Part shown: positions 44,632 to 49,549 of the stretch, in pieces | How positions within the stretch are numbered: position 1 is the first letter of the stretch | Layout of the letters: each line of letters opens with the position of its first letter | NCBI GenBank assembly: GCA_963662625.1 | Contig: OY759726.1 | Location: forward strand, 1,728,001 to 1,792,000 | Length of the DNA: 64,000 bases | Reading direction: 5' to 3' | Source of the DNA: Nitrosopumilus sp. | GTDB lineage: Archaea > Thermoproteota > Nitrososphaeria > Nitrososphaerales > Nitrosopumilaceae | Made by a program: the position numbers and the translations under genes | The notes under the pieces: model-generated | The model's input: only the letters and a program-made list of their open reading frames with translations | Database searches by the model: none | Told to the model about the DNA's origin: nothing

Positions 44632-45444
44632 ATGCCTGAGGGATCCGACGACCCCGGCGGCGCCAACCAGGAAGCCCCGGCGCCGTCCTCCAACGTGATA
44701 GACGCCATGTTCGCCAAGAGGGGGACAGAGATCCTCGACTCCGATACCATGATACTGGAGACGCAGAAGAGGGTGTGGGCGGCGCTGAAGAAGGGGTACA
44801 CGTACGCCGGGATCACCGACGACTCGGAGAAGTTCCTCCGGAAGAACGTCTTTGCAAAGCTGGACATGGTGGTCCTGTACGTCGACCTGGTCGGCTCCAC
44901 CACGATGACGCTCGAGCTGCCGGTGGAGAAGCTGGCGAAGATCATCAACTCGTTCTCCCAGGAGATGGCGTCGATGATCCACCAGCACAACGGGTTCGTG
45001 CTCAAGTTCGTCGGCGACGCCGTGATAGGGTACTTTGTGGCAGGCGGGGACAAGCTGCGCGCGGCGCGCGACGGGGTCAGTTGCGCGCGGTCCATGAACA
45101 AGATCATCCAGGAGGCCATAAACCCGGTCCTTAACCAGTACGACTACCCGGACCTGATGGTAAAGATCGGGATGGACTTTGGGCAGAGCATCGTGATCCG
45201 CTACGGGTCAAACCCCTCCGCGTCCCACATAGACCTGATAGGGTCCGTCATGAACATGGCCGCGAAGATCCAGTCCATGGCAAAGCCCAACGAGATACTC
45301 ATCGGCAACGACGTCTACCGGATGCTGCACCCGGAGTACCAGGAGTCGTTCAGGGAGGTCATCATGGACGCGGAAAGGTGGAAGTACCGTTCCAGGAGGA
45401 CGGGCGAGATATACAAAGTCTACGAGCTGGTGCCTAAACGGTGA
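44632..45444 (+). CDS. Class III adenylate/guanylate cyclase catalytic-domain protein
   Basis: LYVDLVGST, LKFVGDAVI, KIGMDFG, DLIGSVMNMAAKIQ. Confidence 0.9.
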   Translation: MPEGSDDPGGANQEAPAPSSNVIDAMFAKRGTEILDSDTMILETQKRVWAALKKGYTYAGITDDSEKFLRKNVFAKLDMVVLYVDLVGSTTMTLELPVEKLAKIINSFSQEMASMIHQHNGFVLKFVGDAVIGYFVAGGDKLRAARDGVSCARSMNKIIQEAINPVLNQYDYPDLMVKIGMDFGQSIVIRYGSNPSASHIDLIGSVMNMAAKIQSMAKPNEILIGNDVYRMLHPEYQESFREVIMDAERWKYRSRRTGEIYKVYELVPKR

Positions 45445-45580
45445 ACCTTCCGGGGCACTCTACGTGCTCGTAGTGGTGCTCGGTGAATTTTTCCTGCACG
45501 ACGTAGATCACTATCTTGTGCAGGTCCTCGTAGCTGATGGGCTTTTTGCACTTTGCGCACGTCCTCTTGGTCTGTGGCAT
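45434..45580 (-). CDS. 48-aa CxxC...HxxC zinc-finger miniprotein (not in ORF track)
   Basis: MPQTKRTCAKCKKPISYEDLHKIVIYVVQEKFTEHHYEHVECPGRFTV*; TTATAA box about 25-30 bp upstream. Confidence 0.75.
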   Translation of the reverse strand: MPQTKRTCAKCKKPISYEDLHKIVIYVVQEKFTEHHYEHVECPGRFTV

Positions 45581-45756
45581 TGGAATAGTTGATCCAGCAA
45601 GGAATTATAAGGATCGGCGATCAGCTCAAGTTGAGTAAAAACAACTCCGATTTTACATCCTGATTTATCAAACGCCTGAGCGCCCACGCGTGGCAGGCAC
45701 GCGGCCGCGCGCCGGCGGCCCCCTCCCGGCCCCATGGCAAGGCAAAAATAAGCCCA

Positions 45757-46158
45757 ATGCCAGGCATCAGCATGGACGACCACGTTCTGAACCACCTGAG
45801 GGGCCTCTACGGCGCGGATCCGGACGTGCCGCACGTGGCATTCCAGTTTCCAAGGCTCCCCCCCGGCCCGAGGCGGGAGTTCGACCCGGGAGCGGGCCCC
45901 GCGCTGGAGGGCATGCTGAAGGACGCCGGGGGCATCGGCGGCGGGCTCCAGGGCTTCCAGCACGCGTACCAGATGCGCGCCGCCGGACTCCTCACCGCGG
46001 GCCCCATGGTCGTACCCCCGGGACACCCGCTGTACACCCTGCGGGACTCGGTCTCCTCGCTGAGGGCCGAGAACGACAAACTGCTGAAGGAGAATGCCGA
46101 GCTGCGCAAGAGGCTCGAGGATTCCAGATCCCATTCCACGTCGGCACGCGCGCCATAA
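45757..46158 (+). CDS. Hypothetical protein with C-terminal coiled coil
   Basis: LRDSVSSLRAENDKLLKENAELRKRLE heptads. Confidence 0.6.
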   Translation: MPGISMDDHVLNHLRGLYGADPDVPHVAFQFPRLPPGPRREFDPGAGPALEGMLKDAGGIGGGLQGFQHAYQMRAAGLLTAGPMVVPPGHPLYTLRDSVSSLRAENDKLLKENAELRKRLEDSRSHSTSARAP

Positions 46159-46209
46159 GGCGGGGCAGCCCGCCCGCCCGGGGCATCCCACGCAATAGTC
46201 TGTTGAACA

Positions 46210-46530
46210 CATGATAACCACCCAGGCGTAGTTGCCCCGATGGACCGGCCCCTGGTAGCGCGTGGGCCTGGCGCCCTTTCTGTTGAATGGGGCAATCCGA
46301 GCTGCCGTGTCACTGGGCTTCGCGCCCTGATAGGTGTGTGCAGCTTCCGATCCGTCAGGCATCCGAAAGGAGGTGATAGGAAAGGATGAGAAAGACAAGC
46401 ATGGGGACAGGCATGGGGAAGAGAAAGCGCGGCGCGTGCGTGGTGGACGGGAACGGGAAGGTTCTCGAGAGGGGGCAGTACCCCAACACCCGGGACGGCG
46501 CGGCGAAGTTCGCAGGGGTGATGGCGCGCA
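46210..46530 (+). mobile_element. Truncated IS110-family element (non-coding left end plus first ~48 codons of DEDD recombinase) nested in the IS5 left TIR
   Basis: GGAGGTGA SD at 46369, ATG 46386: MRKTSMGTGMGKRKRGACVVDGNGKVLERGQYPNTRDG, matching the IS110 N-terminus GID..K.....CV.D..G......(F/Y).N...G. Confidence 0.78.
46225..46350 (+). ncRNA. Candidate IS110 bridge/seek RNA (two stem-loops with internal loops)
   Basis: Stems TTGCCCC/GGGGCAA with inner GGCCC/GGGCC, and AGCTGC/GCAGCT with inner GGGC/GCCC; loop has TCTGTTGAA identical to the left flank. Confidence 0.5.
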
Positions 46531-47821
46531 ACTGCCAGAAATTGCCGGGCCTAAACAGTTGAGCCCCCAGCCCAACCACGCCAAACCGAAAAGGCCTTGG
46601 ATCACGGCCGCGCACCGTCCCCGTTGGCTGCGACCGACAACGAGAAATGCGCCAGGTGCGGGAGGGGCCTGGCGGTGTCGCATGGCCCCGGCTGGGGGGC
46701 GGCCTGGGGGAGGCCAACGCCGGCAAGGAGGGCGCCCCGTTCAGGTACGCCTGGGCGCTGGTCATGGCCGCCGCCGCGGTGAGGACATCGCCCGGGGCCC
46801 GGTACAGGCAGCTGTCCGGGCTCCTCGCTGGGATGCTGGGGGGCATGGCGCGCCGCACAGCCCGGTGCTGGCCAGGAGGATGGCGCGCCCCGGCGGGGGA
46901 GTCGTCCGCGTCTCCGGCGGCGGCCAGCCCATGACCCTGCTGGCCGACGCCACGGGCCTGAAGCAGTGCAACCGGGGCGAGTGGATACGGAAGAAGTGGA
47001 AGGTGAAGCGCGGGTTCGCCAGGCTGCACCTGCTGGCCGACGCCGACACGAAGAAGATGCCCGCGGCGGTGGTGACCGACGACAGGACGGGCGACTCCCC
47101 CATGCTGAAGGAGCTCCTGGGAACCGTGGTGGAGCCGCGTGGCGGGAAGCGGCAAGAGGGGAAGCCGGCGGGGAAGCAGGACAGGCGCATGGCGCTGATC
47201 CGCGGGAAGGCAGCCGCGGCGGGGGATCCCCTGCCGCGCGCGGGCTCGCCCCCGCCCAACCTCCTCGCGAGCGGCGTGGCGCCGCTCGCGCTGCAGTGCG
47301 GCCAGCCGCCCGGCTCCCGCGGGGCGCGCCTGATCGCGGACGGGGCGTGCGCGTCGCGGGACAACATGCGGAGGTGCCGCGACATGGGCGTGGGGCCTAT
47401 CATCCTGGCCAGGGTAGCGCCCGCCGCCGGGGGCAAGGGCGCCGGCGGCGCGTGGGGCGAGGCGGCTCGGGACCGGCCGGGGGGCGGCCCGGAGGCGCGC
47501 GCCGGCAGGATGGGCACGAGGGAGAGGGAGGAGAACGCCCGGTACCGGGAGGCCAGGAAGGGGTACGGCAGGAGGTGGCTGACCGGGATAACCATGTCGG
47601 CGTTCAAGGGGACGTCCGGGGACCACGCGCGCTCGCGCAGGTGGGAGAACATCGTGCAGGAGGCAAGGCCCATGGCGGCCCAGCACGACCGGTGGGCGGG
47701 GGAGGCGGGGGCGTAGGGACTCCAAGCGGCACGGCCTGGCCACGGCCCGGGGATCGTGCCGAGTTGTGCAACAGACTACCACGCAAGAATCCTTTATATC
47801 ACGCCGGCATGAATTCGCGGC

Positions 47822-48208
47822 ATGGGGAAGACCCCGTCGGAGAAGTGGAGCCAGATGGTCGTAAAGTACAGGAAGCAGTGCCAGTCGATACTGGCCCTGT
47901 CGAAGAACGTGCGGTACGTGGGGGTGATCAACGCGTACGGGAGGACGCTGGCCGGGATCGTCAACCCTAAGGTAAAGCCGCTGCTGGGCCCGGAGCCCGT
48001 AAAGAACGAGTTCTTCGCGATCCACATGCTGATGAACATGAGGAAGGAGTCGTCCAAGACCCTTGGCAGCCTTGGCCACATGCTGCTGCAACACAGCAAG
48101 GTCTCGATAATCGCCCTGTACAAGGGCAACGTGGTGTACTACGTCTCGGTGGATAAAAAAGAAAAGGATCTGGACCAGATCATCTCAAGCGTCAAGAAGA
48201 CGATCTAG
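47822..48208 (+). CDS. DUF6659-like (profilin/roadblock-like) protein
   Basis: CQSIL...VRYVGVINAYGRTLAG....VKPLL...LGSL. Confidence 0.7.
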   Translation: MGKTPSEKWSQMVVKYRKQCQSILALSKNVRYVGVINAYGRTLAGIVNPKVKPLLGPEPVKNEFFAIHMLMNMRKESSKTLGSLGHMLLQHSKVSIIALYKGNVVYYVSVDKKEKDLDQIISSVKKTI

Positions 48209-48618
48209 GACGGGGTAAACCCGTGGTACCCGCCCGTCTGCTGGTCCTTGTCTTCGAAACTGGGCTCGAACAGCGAAACCAGATAGTCGTCCGGATCCAG
48301 CACTATGGCGTTCTTTCCGGCTTCCCTGTCCACTATGTCGCGGTAGACCTTGATGCCGTGCCCCTTCAGCTCCTCGACGGCCGACTTTACGTCACCCACC
48401 AGGAAGCCGATGGTGATCCCGTTGTCAATGGAACTGCCGATGTGTTCGGCAGTAAGCGACGCCGGATGCAGGCTCAGCAGGGCCCCCGAGGTCCCTAGGT
48501 CGATCCACGACCTGCGCTGGTTTTTTATGGGCAGGCCGATCAGCTCGTGGTAAAAGTGCATGGACCTGTCGAGGTCTTTTACGGCCAGGATCACGTTGCC
48601 GACTTTTTTGATGTTCAC
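48205..48618 (-). CDS. VOC/glyoxalase-family protein
   Basis: VILAVKDLDRSMHFYHELIGL...IGFLVGDV...LDPDDYLVSL. Confidence 0.9.
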   Translation of the reverse strand: MNIKKVGNVILAVKDLDRSMHFYHELIGLPIKNQRRSWIDLGTSGALLSLHPASLTAEHIGSSIDNGITIGFLVGDVKSAVEELKGHGIKVYRDIVDREAGKNAIVLDPDDYLVSLFEPSFEDKDQQTGGYHGFTPS

Positions 48619-48958
48619 GGTATTTACTCACCCCAAGTCCGTTAAATCCTTTTCTTCCCGGATCAAGTCCCGGAAAAGGCGCCTTCCTGAAACAGGAGCG
48701 CTGGGGCGTGCGGTTCCCTGCGCCCCGGACGCGGATCCGTCCCCGTCCCGGCGGGCAGCGACGCTGGGAGGGGGGCGCCCGGAAGGCCGCGCGCAAGGCG
48801 GCGCCGGATCCCGGGAAATGCTGCCCGACGGCTGCCAGATGGTGCCCAGCCCCCGGGGCACGGGCGCTGCGGGAACGCCGGGCCGCTGCTGAGGTGCTGC
48901 CCGACGTCGCTGCGCGGGTACGTGTCGTCGGCCATGCGCGGTGGGAATGTGAGCCGGC

Positions 48959-49549
48959 ATGGATAGGAAGGAACTCAGCTCCTTCCTTGCCGTGTTCAGG
49001 GACTCCAGGTTCCACACGCCCGTGATCGTGGCGGGGTGTGTCATCATGGGCCTCCACACGTTCCACCCGCCGCTGCTCGGTGTCTCGTCGAGTTTTATAT
49101 TGATGGGGGTGGTAGGTCTAGTGATGAAGTTCACCACGAAGCAGATCACCAAGGACATCAATGATAACTTCGGGAAGGTCATCAGGGGGAACGAGGAGTT
49201 GATGGCGGAAGCCGTGGCGAATACGCGGGCCATCAACGCGCTAGGGGCTTCAATTGAGGAGTCTAATGAGCGCATCGTCAACTCGCTCGAGGCTTCGAGG
49301 AAGGAGACTGCCAGTCTCCTCAACTCGCTCGAGGCTTCGAGGAAGGAGACTGCCAGTCTCCTCAACTCGCTCGAGGCTTCGAGGAAGGAGACTGCCAGTC
49401 TCCTCAACTCGCTCGAGTCCTCCATGCGAAAAAACCACCTGGAACTAATCGAGTTCCTCAGGTCTGGGGAAAGCCCCCCAGGCGTGGCTGCGGGCGGCCC
49501 GCCCACTGGCGGGCCCGCGGCCGGAAGGGGCCAAGGCCCCGAAACGTAG
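48959..49549 (+). CDS. Membrane-anchored coiled-coil protein with 14-aa repeats
   Basis: Two N-terminal hydrophobic segments then (NSLEASRKETASLL)3. Confidence 0.7.
   Translation: MDRKELSSFLAVFRDSRFHTPVIVAGCVIMGLHTFHPPLLGVSSSFILMGVVGLVMKFTTKQITKDINDNFGKVIRGNEELMAEAVANTRAINALGASIEESNERIVNSLEASRKETASLLNSLEASRKETASLLNSLEASRKETASLLNSLESSMRKNHLELIEFLRSGESPPGVAAGGPPTGGPAAGRGQGPET
49279..49417. repeat. Perfect 42-bp tandem repeat x3 plus partial copy
   Basis: CAACTCGCTCGAGGCTTCGAGGAAGGAGACTGCCAGTCTCCT at 49279, 49321, 49363. Confidence 0.95.

Follow-up and report, generated by a model that had tools for sequence, protein, structure and literature searches.

A dead IS110-family remnant in the terminal repeat of an archaeal IS5-like element, and the predicted guide RNA encoded in its left end

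Insertion sequences (ISs) that settle in the ends of other mobile elements have been met before: IS4321/IS5075 reportedly target the terminal repeats of the Tn21 family, and IS1383 is said to target the repeats of IS1384. Recombination directed by a bridge or seek RNA is described for IS110/IS1111 elements in the mechanistic passages of PMC11208160, PMC11208158 and PMC11187229, and experiments presented in PMC11208160 and PMC11187229 demonstrate that relatives of the element considered here require the RNA. According to the account of IS1111-type elements in PMC11187229, the RNA normally lies downstream of the recombinase gene, with rare upstream exceptions such as ISMtsp17, the top-strand complement stands 5' of the bottom-strand match in the guide RNA, and the enzymes carry a GL-P----S(T)G motif (Siddiquee et al. 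2024, section 6). Archaeal members have also been catalogued, 662 IS110 recombinases being given for 2835 archaeal genomes (10.1101/2024.06.21.599552). The present work concerns a stretch of 64,000 nucleotides from Nitrosopumilus sp. (contig OY759726.1, positions 1,728,001 to 1,792,000; hereafter the window), in which the left terminal repeat of an IS5-like element is interrupted by a short insert. Very probably, this insert is what remains of the 5' part of an RNA-guided IS110-family insertion sequence with features of the IS1111 group.

The insert, its intact relative and its landing site

After a search of the window's own genome (G000; one contig of 1.86 Mb, 63% G+C), eight full-length copies of the inserted element (1393-1411 nt) and about 19 partial ones were obtained, together with nine full-length copies of the IS5-like element, five of which have no insert. 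The genome is archaeal, as the preliminary description had proposed, its SSU rRNA reaching 1456 bits with the model for Archaea and 1085 bits with that for Bacteria. The left junctions of the copies read ..TAGTCTGTTG followed by AACACATGATAACC.. (the element start is also given as AACACATG), and the right junctions read ..GGTTAACATAGGTG followed by CACAACT.. (the element end is also given as ACATAGGTG). The tips of the uninterrupted IS5 copies, which all lack the segment of about 320 bp, read TAGTCTGTTGCACAACT, with the sole exception of the left tip of copy 8472 (TAGCTTGTTGCACAACT; also given as TAGCTTGTTG). Because the junctions could be compared with these intact tips, the target can be written as TAGTCTGTTG^CACAACT. 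TG is the only sequence that both junctions have in common with the empty site; no target duplication accompanies the element, and a short core is shared by the target and the element ends, as in the IS110 family. A core of AA or ACA instead of TG is ruled out by the intact tips, which read ..GTTGCACAACT.

The element splits four of the nine full-length IS5 copies. The left repeat is hit in three of them and the right repeat in one, and the polarity relative to the repeat is constant. The sequence TAGTYTGTTG occurs 26 times in the genome: 8 sites are followed by the element and 14 by CACAACT (intact IS5 tips), one is followed by AACAACT, two by the tips of a second, shorter element, and one is part of a tandem duplication of 15 nt. 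Miniature inverted-repeat transposable elements (MITEs) of about 85 bp, with IS5-like repeats that read TAGTTTGTTGCGCAAC...GTTGCGCAACAAGCTA, contain two copies and one fragment in their tips. Among the nine copies of this genome that carry TCTGTTG in the loop and have kept their left end, six adjoin TCTGTTG, two adjoin TTTGTTG and one adjoins a poor match; the other copies thus mostly occupy the same sequence, as the preliminary description would require. Two arrangements of copies were observed besides. The perfect 15-nt tandem duplication CCTAATAGTCTGTTG, made of IS5 flank and repeat tip (L045:1471-1500 = G000:C1:1194264-1194293), lies directly left of the only intact IS110 copy and may be the footprint of an earlier recombination at the site. 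At G000:C1:718141-731141, two 100% identical inverted IS110 copies, each in an IS5 repeat, bracket about 7.6 kb, an arrangement that looks like a composite or invertible segment.

The intact element measures about 1405 bp and its gene encodes a DEDD/Ser recombinase of 363 aa. A full-length copy reaches 98 bits on PF01548 (cut-off 29) and 78.2 bits on PF02371 (cut-off 21.3), so that both domains are present, and the intact copy reaches 242.9 bits on NF033542 'IS110 family RNA-guided transposase' (cut-off 140). The Shine-Dalgarno (SD) sequence GGAGGTGA and the start of an IS110 DEDD recombinase had already been read in the window. Among the eight full-length copies, c1194294 is alone in having both IGIDIGK and an open frame of 363 aa that ends in a normal stop; its presumed catalytic motifs IGIDIGK, CETTG, KTDRIDA and YQSGN align with ISCro4 by sequence. 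In a sequence search, the best relatives with a solved structure were the transposases of ISCro4 and IS621. The motif AGLCPVVYQSG in the C-terminal domain has the GL-P----S(T)G form of IS1111-type enzymes, and the subterminal inverted repeats, with 43-nt arms that are 81% complementary in the full copy L045, have the length expected for that group; nt 7-38 of the query match the opposite strand about 1.37 kb away. The right end of c1194294 has about 120 nt of non-coding sequence. The left end is non-coding over 180 nt and holds the predicted RNA upstream of the recombinase gene, all four guides being 5' of the ATG. The sequence ATGATAAC at element nt 6-13, about 28 nt 5' of stem S0 by inspection, could be an archaeal TATA box.

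The window copy matches the full copies until ..ATGGCGCGCA (46530), where they go on with GGTACC. A deletion joins the element to the IS5 sequence ..CACA|ACTGCC and has removed about 1080 nt of the element, right end and second core included, as well as 2 nt of the IS5 repeat. Over query nt 1-326 the window copy is 97-99% identical to four full-length copies (476457, 720505, 728473, 1194293) and 86-95% identical to the remaining four. In the remnant, the first catalytic Asp motif GID is replaced by GMG, and the 58-aa open reading frame (ORF) scores 18.1 bits on PF01548, below the cut-off of 29, and is without the C-terminal domain. The window copy, truncated and with its catalytic Asp replaced, is dead.

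The host element is a transposon of the DDE_Tnp_1 type, a less decayed copy of it scoring 77.8 bits on PF01609 and 38.8 bits on PF13737, with 17-nt terminal repeats and 8-bp target duplications; the label IS5-like is used here in a sense that does not distinguish the IS families within the DDE_Tnp_1 clan. The transposase frame of the window copy gave no Pfam or NCBIfam match. Its IS5 sequence resumes after the insert at about 46530 with ..AACTGCCAGAAATTGCC, and its right end reads ..AGTTGTGCAACAGACTA (to 47777). The preliminary description had thus rightly recognised an IS5 element with the 8-bp duplication CCACGCAA and an interrupted left repeat. It had made the insert start after ..AACA; these nucleotides belong to the insert, as the intact IS5 tips show, and the repeat that it reconstructed with 16 of 17 matches is arithmetically correct with 4 nt mis-assigned. 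Its estimate of about 320 bp was near the 325 nt obtained by comparison with a full copy, and the truncation of the recombinase by a deletion holds, at a microhomology of CA (2 nt) instead of CAA.

RNA modules, guide segments and their DNA partners

Left ends from five related genomes (21 sequences) were aligned, and RNAalifold recovered five helices from the alignment unprompted. The consensus fold was used because folding of the single sequence was not better than that of shuffles. In this consensus structure, 94.3% of the cells are paired, compared with 26-55% when the 3' partners were slid; 12 pairs with double changes were observed, compared with 2-7 after sliding, and none of 500 shuffles attained the observed value. 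The stems therefore covary. In each of the two modules of the resulting RNA, a stem leads to an internal loop, where two guides lie single-stranded, and to an inner hairpin. The two consecutive hairpins that had been drawn at 46232-46295 and 46300-46345 correspond to these modules, with limits that are corrected to 46249-46292 and 46299-46346 and with one common closing stem, S0, around both. A sample of 151 genomes of the same archaeal family was searched with a covariance model built from the alignment; 29 gave matches, many with more than one copy. This tally counts G000 and an unpublished genome, G100, which was left out of all further analyses.

Variation in the alignment is greatest in the four single-stranded stretches that separate the helices. 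By base matching, these stretches fit both strands of the target and the joined element ends, as in the IS110 family. The 9-mer TCTGTTGAA, which lies at 46199-46207, is repeated at 46279-46287 in the first loop, as had been noticed from the window. Chance is excluded here by the covariation between guides and DNA and not by this single 9-mer. The covariation was measured on 67 loci of relatives, to which 8 or 12 copies of G000 were added in the two target-guide tests, the donor tests being made on the 67 only. The left-target guide was defined as the 7 nt before the AA-U that precedes the S1 3' strand, and was searched in a span of 52 nt round the left junction; 79 cases were available, 75 after removal of duplicates. 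With at most one mismatch, 60 of the 75 guides match their own flank, compared with 5.2% of 4246 non-cognate pairings, and exact matches were found for 35 of 75, compared with 0.5%. The matched guides are as diverse as GTCGTG, TATTTTG, CATGCTTG, GGTTGTTG, TTAGTTG and CTCCTTG. The right-target guide was tested against the core and 6 nt of right flank, the right end being located through the donor guide and the repeat context; this rule gave a right end for 50 of the 75 elements, or 39 after removal of duplicates. The mean number of Watson-Crick pairs was 5.28 of 8 with the own flank and 2.95 with non-cognate ones. At least 7 of 8 pairs were formed by 11 of 39 guides (0.07% of 1374 non-cognate pairings), and by 24 of 39 when wobble was allowed (3.9%). 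In the window, GUAGCGCG forms 5 Watson-Crick pairs and 1 wobble pair of 8 with the IS5 tip TGCACAAC, and fits the MITE tips TGCGCGAC and TGCGCAAC slightly better, with 6 and 1 wobble.

The second loop follows the element itself. The right-donor guide, taken as the 6 nt after the S2 5' strand, is complementary with at most one mismatch to its own element start in 57 of 63 cases, compared with 14.4% of 2298 non-cognate pairings; matched changes are illustrated by UGUGUU/AACACA, GUCU/AGAC, UGUGUA/TACACA, AGCCUU/AAGGC and GGCUUC/GAAGC, and four of the six pairs survive in the window copy. For the left-donor guide, the comparison was made with the tip of the right end as placed by the inverted repeat and nothing else; the two are identical in 19 of 21 cases and in none of 108 non-cognate pairings. 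More than 20 distinct guide pairs were counted in total. The order in both modules is right guide, hairpin, left guide. It is the reverse of the IS621-like loop layout that the preliminary description implied, and it agrees with the order published for IS1111-type seekRNAs.

A different reading of the same loops would make this a bridge RNA of the IS621 type (IS110 group), in which loop 1 reads the target alone, through TCTGTTGAA and a segment for the opposite strand. It would account for an RNA encoded ahead of the recombinase gene, the position found in the IS110 group, and for the succession of TCTGTTGAA, a stem-like GGGGCA..UGCC and a second single strand, GUGUCACU. However, the segment 3' of that stem covaries with the element start and not with the right target (GUCU/AAGAC, UGUGUA/TACACA, AGCCUU/AAGGC), and it is the segment preceding hairpin A that covaries with the right target. 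Besides, the GGCA/UGCC hairpin is lost in G001, whereas the CCCC:GGGG pairing is conserved there as UCCC:GGGA, and the inverted repeats are 26-43 nt long, not 2-3 nt. Such a layout is hence judged highly improbable.

Three further segments were considered as guides or extensions of guides. TGTGCA (46337-46342), complementary to TGCACA, was ruled out as right-target guide, being conserved in G016 and G001 despite their different right targets. When the 3 variable nt after the left-donor guide were compared by eye with the right target and with the element start, as a possible 'handshake', neither comparison gave a consistent match. The AA that follows the left-target guide is replaced by GA in L070, L114 and L116, three members of the G158/G067 group, in which the elements start with GA, and is AA in its remaining members, a variation too slight to support a match to the element start.

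The aim of the guides at repeat tips extends beyond the window genome. At loci L059 and L083-L093 of G103 and locus L100 of G120, which represent two other genera, the guides ACCTGTTG and GUUAUGCA accompany sites of the form TAGCCTGTTG^CATAAC.., repeat-like tips similar to the window IS5 tip. Aiming at IS5-type repeat tips therefore looks old within one lineage.

Several observations count against an RNA-guided element of this kind. The contrasts given above overstate the number of independent events, because related elements are not independent samples and one repeated target accounts for many of the insertions. Two or more mismatches to the flank are found in 15 of the 75 left-target guides, and three or fewer Watson-Crick pairs in 9 of the 39 right-target guides. 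In G000, c1699637 carries CGCCATG and GUAUGGUG yet occupies TAGTCTGTTG followed by CGCCAC, and the own guides of c1230215 and c1533450 do not fit their sites. Seven of the eight full-length copies have damaged catalytic motifs or broken frames. The fold of the single sequence is no more stable than those of shuffles (z = -0.28), and Rfam 15 gave no match in window positions 45000-49000 with E values up to 10. Finally, the mechanism of IS621 may not transfer in detail, because the right-donor guide is without core pairing. For the ill-fitting copies, action in trans of the RNA of another copy, recombination between copies or decay of the guides are possible.

These misfits would also be expected if contacts between protein and DNA alone recognised the repeat tip, in which case the internal 7- to 9-mers would be by-products (e.g., relics of inward-copied ends) and the left end would act only as a leader for translation, masking the SD sequence. 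By inspection, CUUCC (46345-46349) could pair with the SD GGAGG, and the RNA is here a prediction from sequence. Against this, each of the four segments follows a different DNA partner over dozens of distinct sequences, with conserved stems between them, and the need for the RNA has been demonstrated in the experiments on relatives reported in PMC11208160 and PMC11187229. Recognition by protein only can be given hardly any weight, and guidance by the left-end RNA is retained as the explanation.

By analogy with IS621 and ISEc11, we infer that the left end would be transcribed and that its RNA would bind the recombinase in a ribonucleoprotein, while the element would excise as a circle joining ..ACATAGG-TG-AACACATG... 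Module 1 would read both strands of TAGTCTGTTG^CACAACT, its 3' guide TCTGTTG pairing with the bottom strand. Module 2 would read the joined ends, its 5' guide pairing with element nt 1-6 and its 3' guide corresponding to the tip of the right end with the core. Strand exchange at the shared TG would separate nt 10 from nt 11 of the repeat, with the element in between, in one orientation only, in the IS5-like repeat as in the related 85-bp MITEs. The repeat tips would offer a multicopy and probably neutral landing site, which travels with the host element, and it is plausibly a side effect that a split end no longer serves the transposition of IS5. In the window copy, the catalytic Asp had been lost before the 3' 1080 nt were deleted at the 2-nt microhomology. 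The contigs of four DNA runs (one study) held no circle joint and no listed piece spanning 46530 with 31 nt on each side; these contigs break at repeats.

The effect on IS5 could also be the purpose, if the host had co-opted the element, or RNA-only remnants such as the window copy, to disable IS5-type elements in its own defence. Four of nine full-length IS5 copies are split in the repeat, the two most decayed ones (GC 0.74 and 0.75) are both among them, the window remnant retains the whole RNA region and no enzyme, and related elements of other genera also aim at TAG(C/T)CTGTTG tips. Set against these points, the element is multicopy and decays like any IS, relatives with other guides aim at many unrelated sequences, and the bacterial cases of repeat targeting were published, by the titles of the references, as selfish targeting. 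Co-option for defence is thus considered very unlikely. The features of the locus are collected in Table 1.

Table 1. Features of the insert and of its IS5-like host element in the window, with the MITEs entered by other copies of the genome
Feature	Position	Strand	Remark
Left 8-bp target-site duplication of the IS5-like element, CCACGCAA	46188-46195		Right copy 47778-47785; other IS5 copies have 8-bp duplications too
IS5 left terminal repeat, outer 10 nt, TAGTCTGTTG	46196-46205	+	Left target and core TG (46204-46205)
Truncated IS110-family (IS1111-like) element, nt 1-325 of about 1405	46206-46530	+	Entire non-coding left end and first 48 recombinase codons
Left arm of subterminal inverted repeat, ATGATAACCACCCAGGCGTAGTTGCC	46211-46236	+	Partner in right end deleted from window copy
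Bridge/seek RNA core (predicted)	46241-46354	+	From covariation; element nt 36-149, about 115 nt
Closing stem S0	46241-46247 with 46348-46354	+	RNAalifold
Stem S1	46249-46252 with 46289-46292	+	RNAalifold
Right-target guide (putative), GUAGCGCG	46255-46262	+	8 nt, 5' side of loop 1, before hairpin A
Inner hairpin A of target-binding module (GGGC CUGGC GCCC)	46264-46276	+	Helix 3; compensatory changes in 2 of 4 pairs
Left-target guide (putative) TCTGTTG, then AA	46279-46287	+	Equals top strand of left target and core TG; AA equals element nt 1-2
Stem S2	about 46299-46305 with 46340-46346	+	RNAalifold
Right-donor guide (putative) CGUGUC	46306-46311	+	On the 5' side of loop 2; UGUGUU in most relatives; complement of element nt 1-6 (AACACA)
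Inner hairpin C of donor-binding module	46315-46327	+	Helix 5
Left-donor guide (putative) AUAGGUG	46330-46336	+	Equals last 5 nt of right end and core TG
Shine-Dalgarno-like GGAGGTGA	46369-46376	+	10 nt 5' of ATG (46386); conserved in left-end alignment
Remnant recombinase ORF, 58 aa	46386-46562	+	About 48 codons from the element, remainder reads into IS5
Deletion junction	46529-46530		2-nt CA microhomology; window copy compared with full IS110 copies and intact IS5
Remainder of IS5-like element	46531-47777	+	Decayed transposase frame; right terminal repeat ends at 47777
MITEs of about 85 bp entered at repeat tips	G000:C1:1063441-1064940, 476448-477935, 700438-700520		

Base changes in decaying copies and other observations

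A bias of base changes was observed in the decaying copies. With the intact copy c1194294 as reference, nearly all differences of the other IS110 copies are A>G or T>C, the A:T>G:C transitions amounting to 44 of 44 differences in c728474, 89 of 90 in c476458, 199 of 210 in c18717 and 186 of 212 in c1508668. The same bias is seen in the IS5 copies, with 52 of 69 differences in the window copy relative to the least-changed one. The derived state, polarised with the outgroup G016, lies in the copy richer in GC. The changes are clustered, 40 of the 44 in c728474 lying at most 6 nt from another, are equal on both strands and often convert T(S)nA into C(S)nG (n 1-3); the changed sites of one copy are nearly a subset of those of another. 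The G+C content of the IS copies rises from 0.63 to 0.78. The genome itself has 63% G+C, compared with 39-43% at loci of 2-3 kb (few kilobases only) from two genomes of the same genus (L030 and L054 of G002, L032 and L038 of G001), a gap that is large for one genus.

Loss of endonuclease V was considered as the cause and rejected: PF04493 was not found in G000 (99.5% complete), nor in its low-GC congeners G001 and G002, and only 4 of the 24 family genomes searched have it, so that this enzyme does not discriminate. A very unusual mutational bias or a process directed at repeats would fit the pattern. This bias may be more surprising than the IS110 finding, and it bears on how the genome reached 63% G+C. 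Elsewhere in the window, a 14-aa unit (LEASRKETASLLNS) occurs three times in tandem in an ORF of 196 aa at 48959-49549 (+), and the overlapping frames show the repetition too.

Comparison with known bridge and seek RNA systems

The locus provides a complete natural code of guide, target and donor, read without experiment, for an uncharacterised branch of archaeal bridge or seek RNA recombinases, with internal controls supplied by dozens of natural reprogramming events. It is also a clean case of a mobile element that resides in another's ends. The conceptual gain is small, RNA guidance, archaeal members and repeat targeting being already in print, and the element adds a new archaeal member to them. 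The copy c1194294 (G000:C1:1194294-1195698) is a candidate pair of enzyme and RNA whose guide order is unlike that of IS621, and may aid comparative work on the mechanism. The exact layout may already be catalogued in published supplements, and it is not claimed here as unpublished.

One close likeness is to the IS1111 group, as represented by ISEc11, ISPa11 and ISKpn4 in the account of PMC11187229. In line with these elements, the recombinase is a DEDD enzyme with the GL-P----SG motif (AGLCPVVYQSG here), the family of the window element has long subterminal inverted repeats, the bottom-strand match is preceded in the RNA by the complement of the top strand, and the element enters a terminal repeat that belongs to another mobile element, in one orientation and without duplicating its target. 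Unlike what is stated for the group in that account, the guide RNA lies upstream and not downstream of the recombinase gene, the recombinase has 363 aa instead of 330-350, and the arms of the repeats have 26-43 nt instead of 7-17; the host is an archaeon, unlike those of the IS1111-group seekRNA elements listed.

With IS621, as presented in the corresponding passages of Durrant et al. 2024 (PMC11208160) and Hiraizumi et al. 2024 (PMC11208158), the element shares an RNA in the left end upstream of the recombinase, two pseudo-symmetric modules for target and donor, a 2-nt core common to both, and left guides and a right-target guide that take in this core. It differs from IS621 as described there by the order of the guides, the right guide being 5' and the left guide 3' in both loops, by one common stem that encloses both modules, by its core (TG here, CT in IS621) and by a right-donor guide that stops short of the core. 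The upstream RNA is shared with the IS110 group (IS621-like), whose subterminal repeats have 2-3 bp, whereas the arms here have 43 nt (81%). In the sequence search, the IS621 transposase aligns with the recombinase only over the N-terminal domain (residues 6-177). The best match with a solved structure is the ISCro4 transposase (PDB 9t56), with an E value of 4e-12 over residues 6-344, IGID, KTDxxDA and SG motifs included; the similarity is low and is a likeness of protein sequence only.

Because its repeats, protein motif and guide order are IS1111-like, the element combines traits of the IS1111 group with an upstream RNA. The features that set the archaeal clade apart are this upstream RNA, one stem closing both modules, the right guide first in both of them, and a donor module without reading of the top-strand core. 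It is conceivable, though somewhat doubtful, that the clade represents a third layout of bridge recombination beside the IS621 and the classical IS1111 types, and that the lineage of G000, G103 and G120 has long been specialised on the tips of IS5-type repeats and MITEs. If so, it would be a compact and naturally much-reprogrammed system that works with archaeal transcription, in which RNA-only remnants such as the window copy might guide the enzyme of an intact copy in trans.

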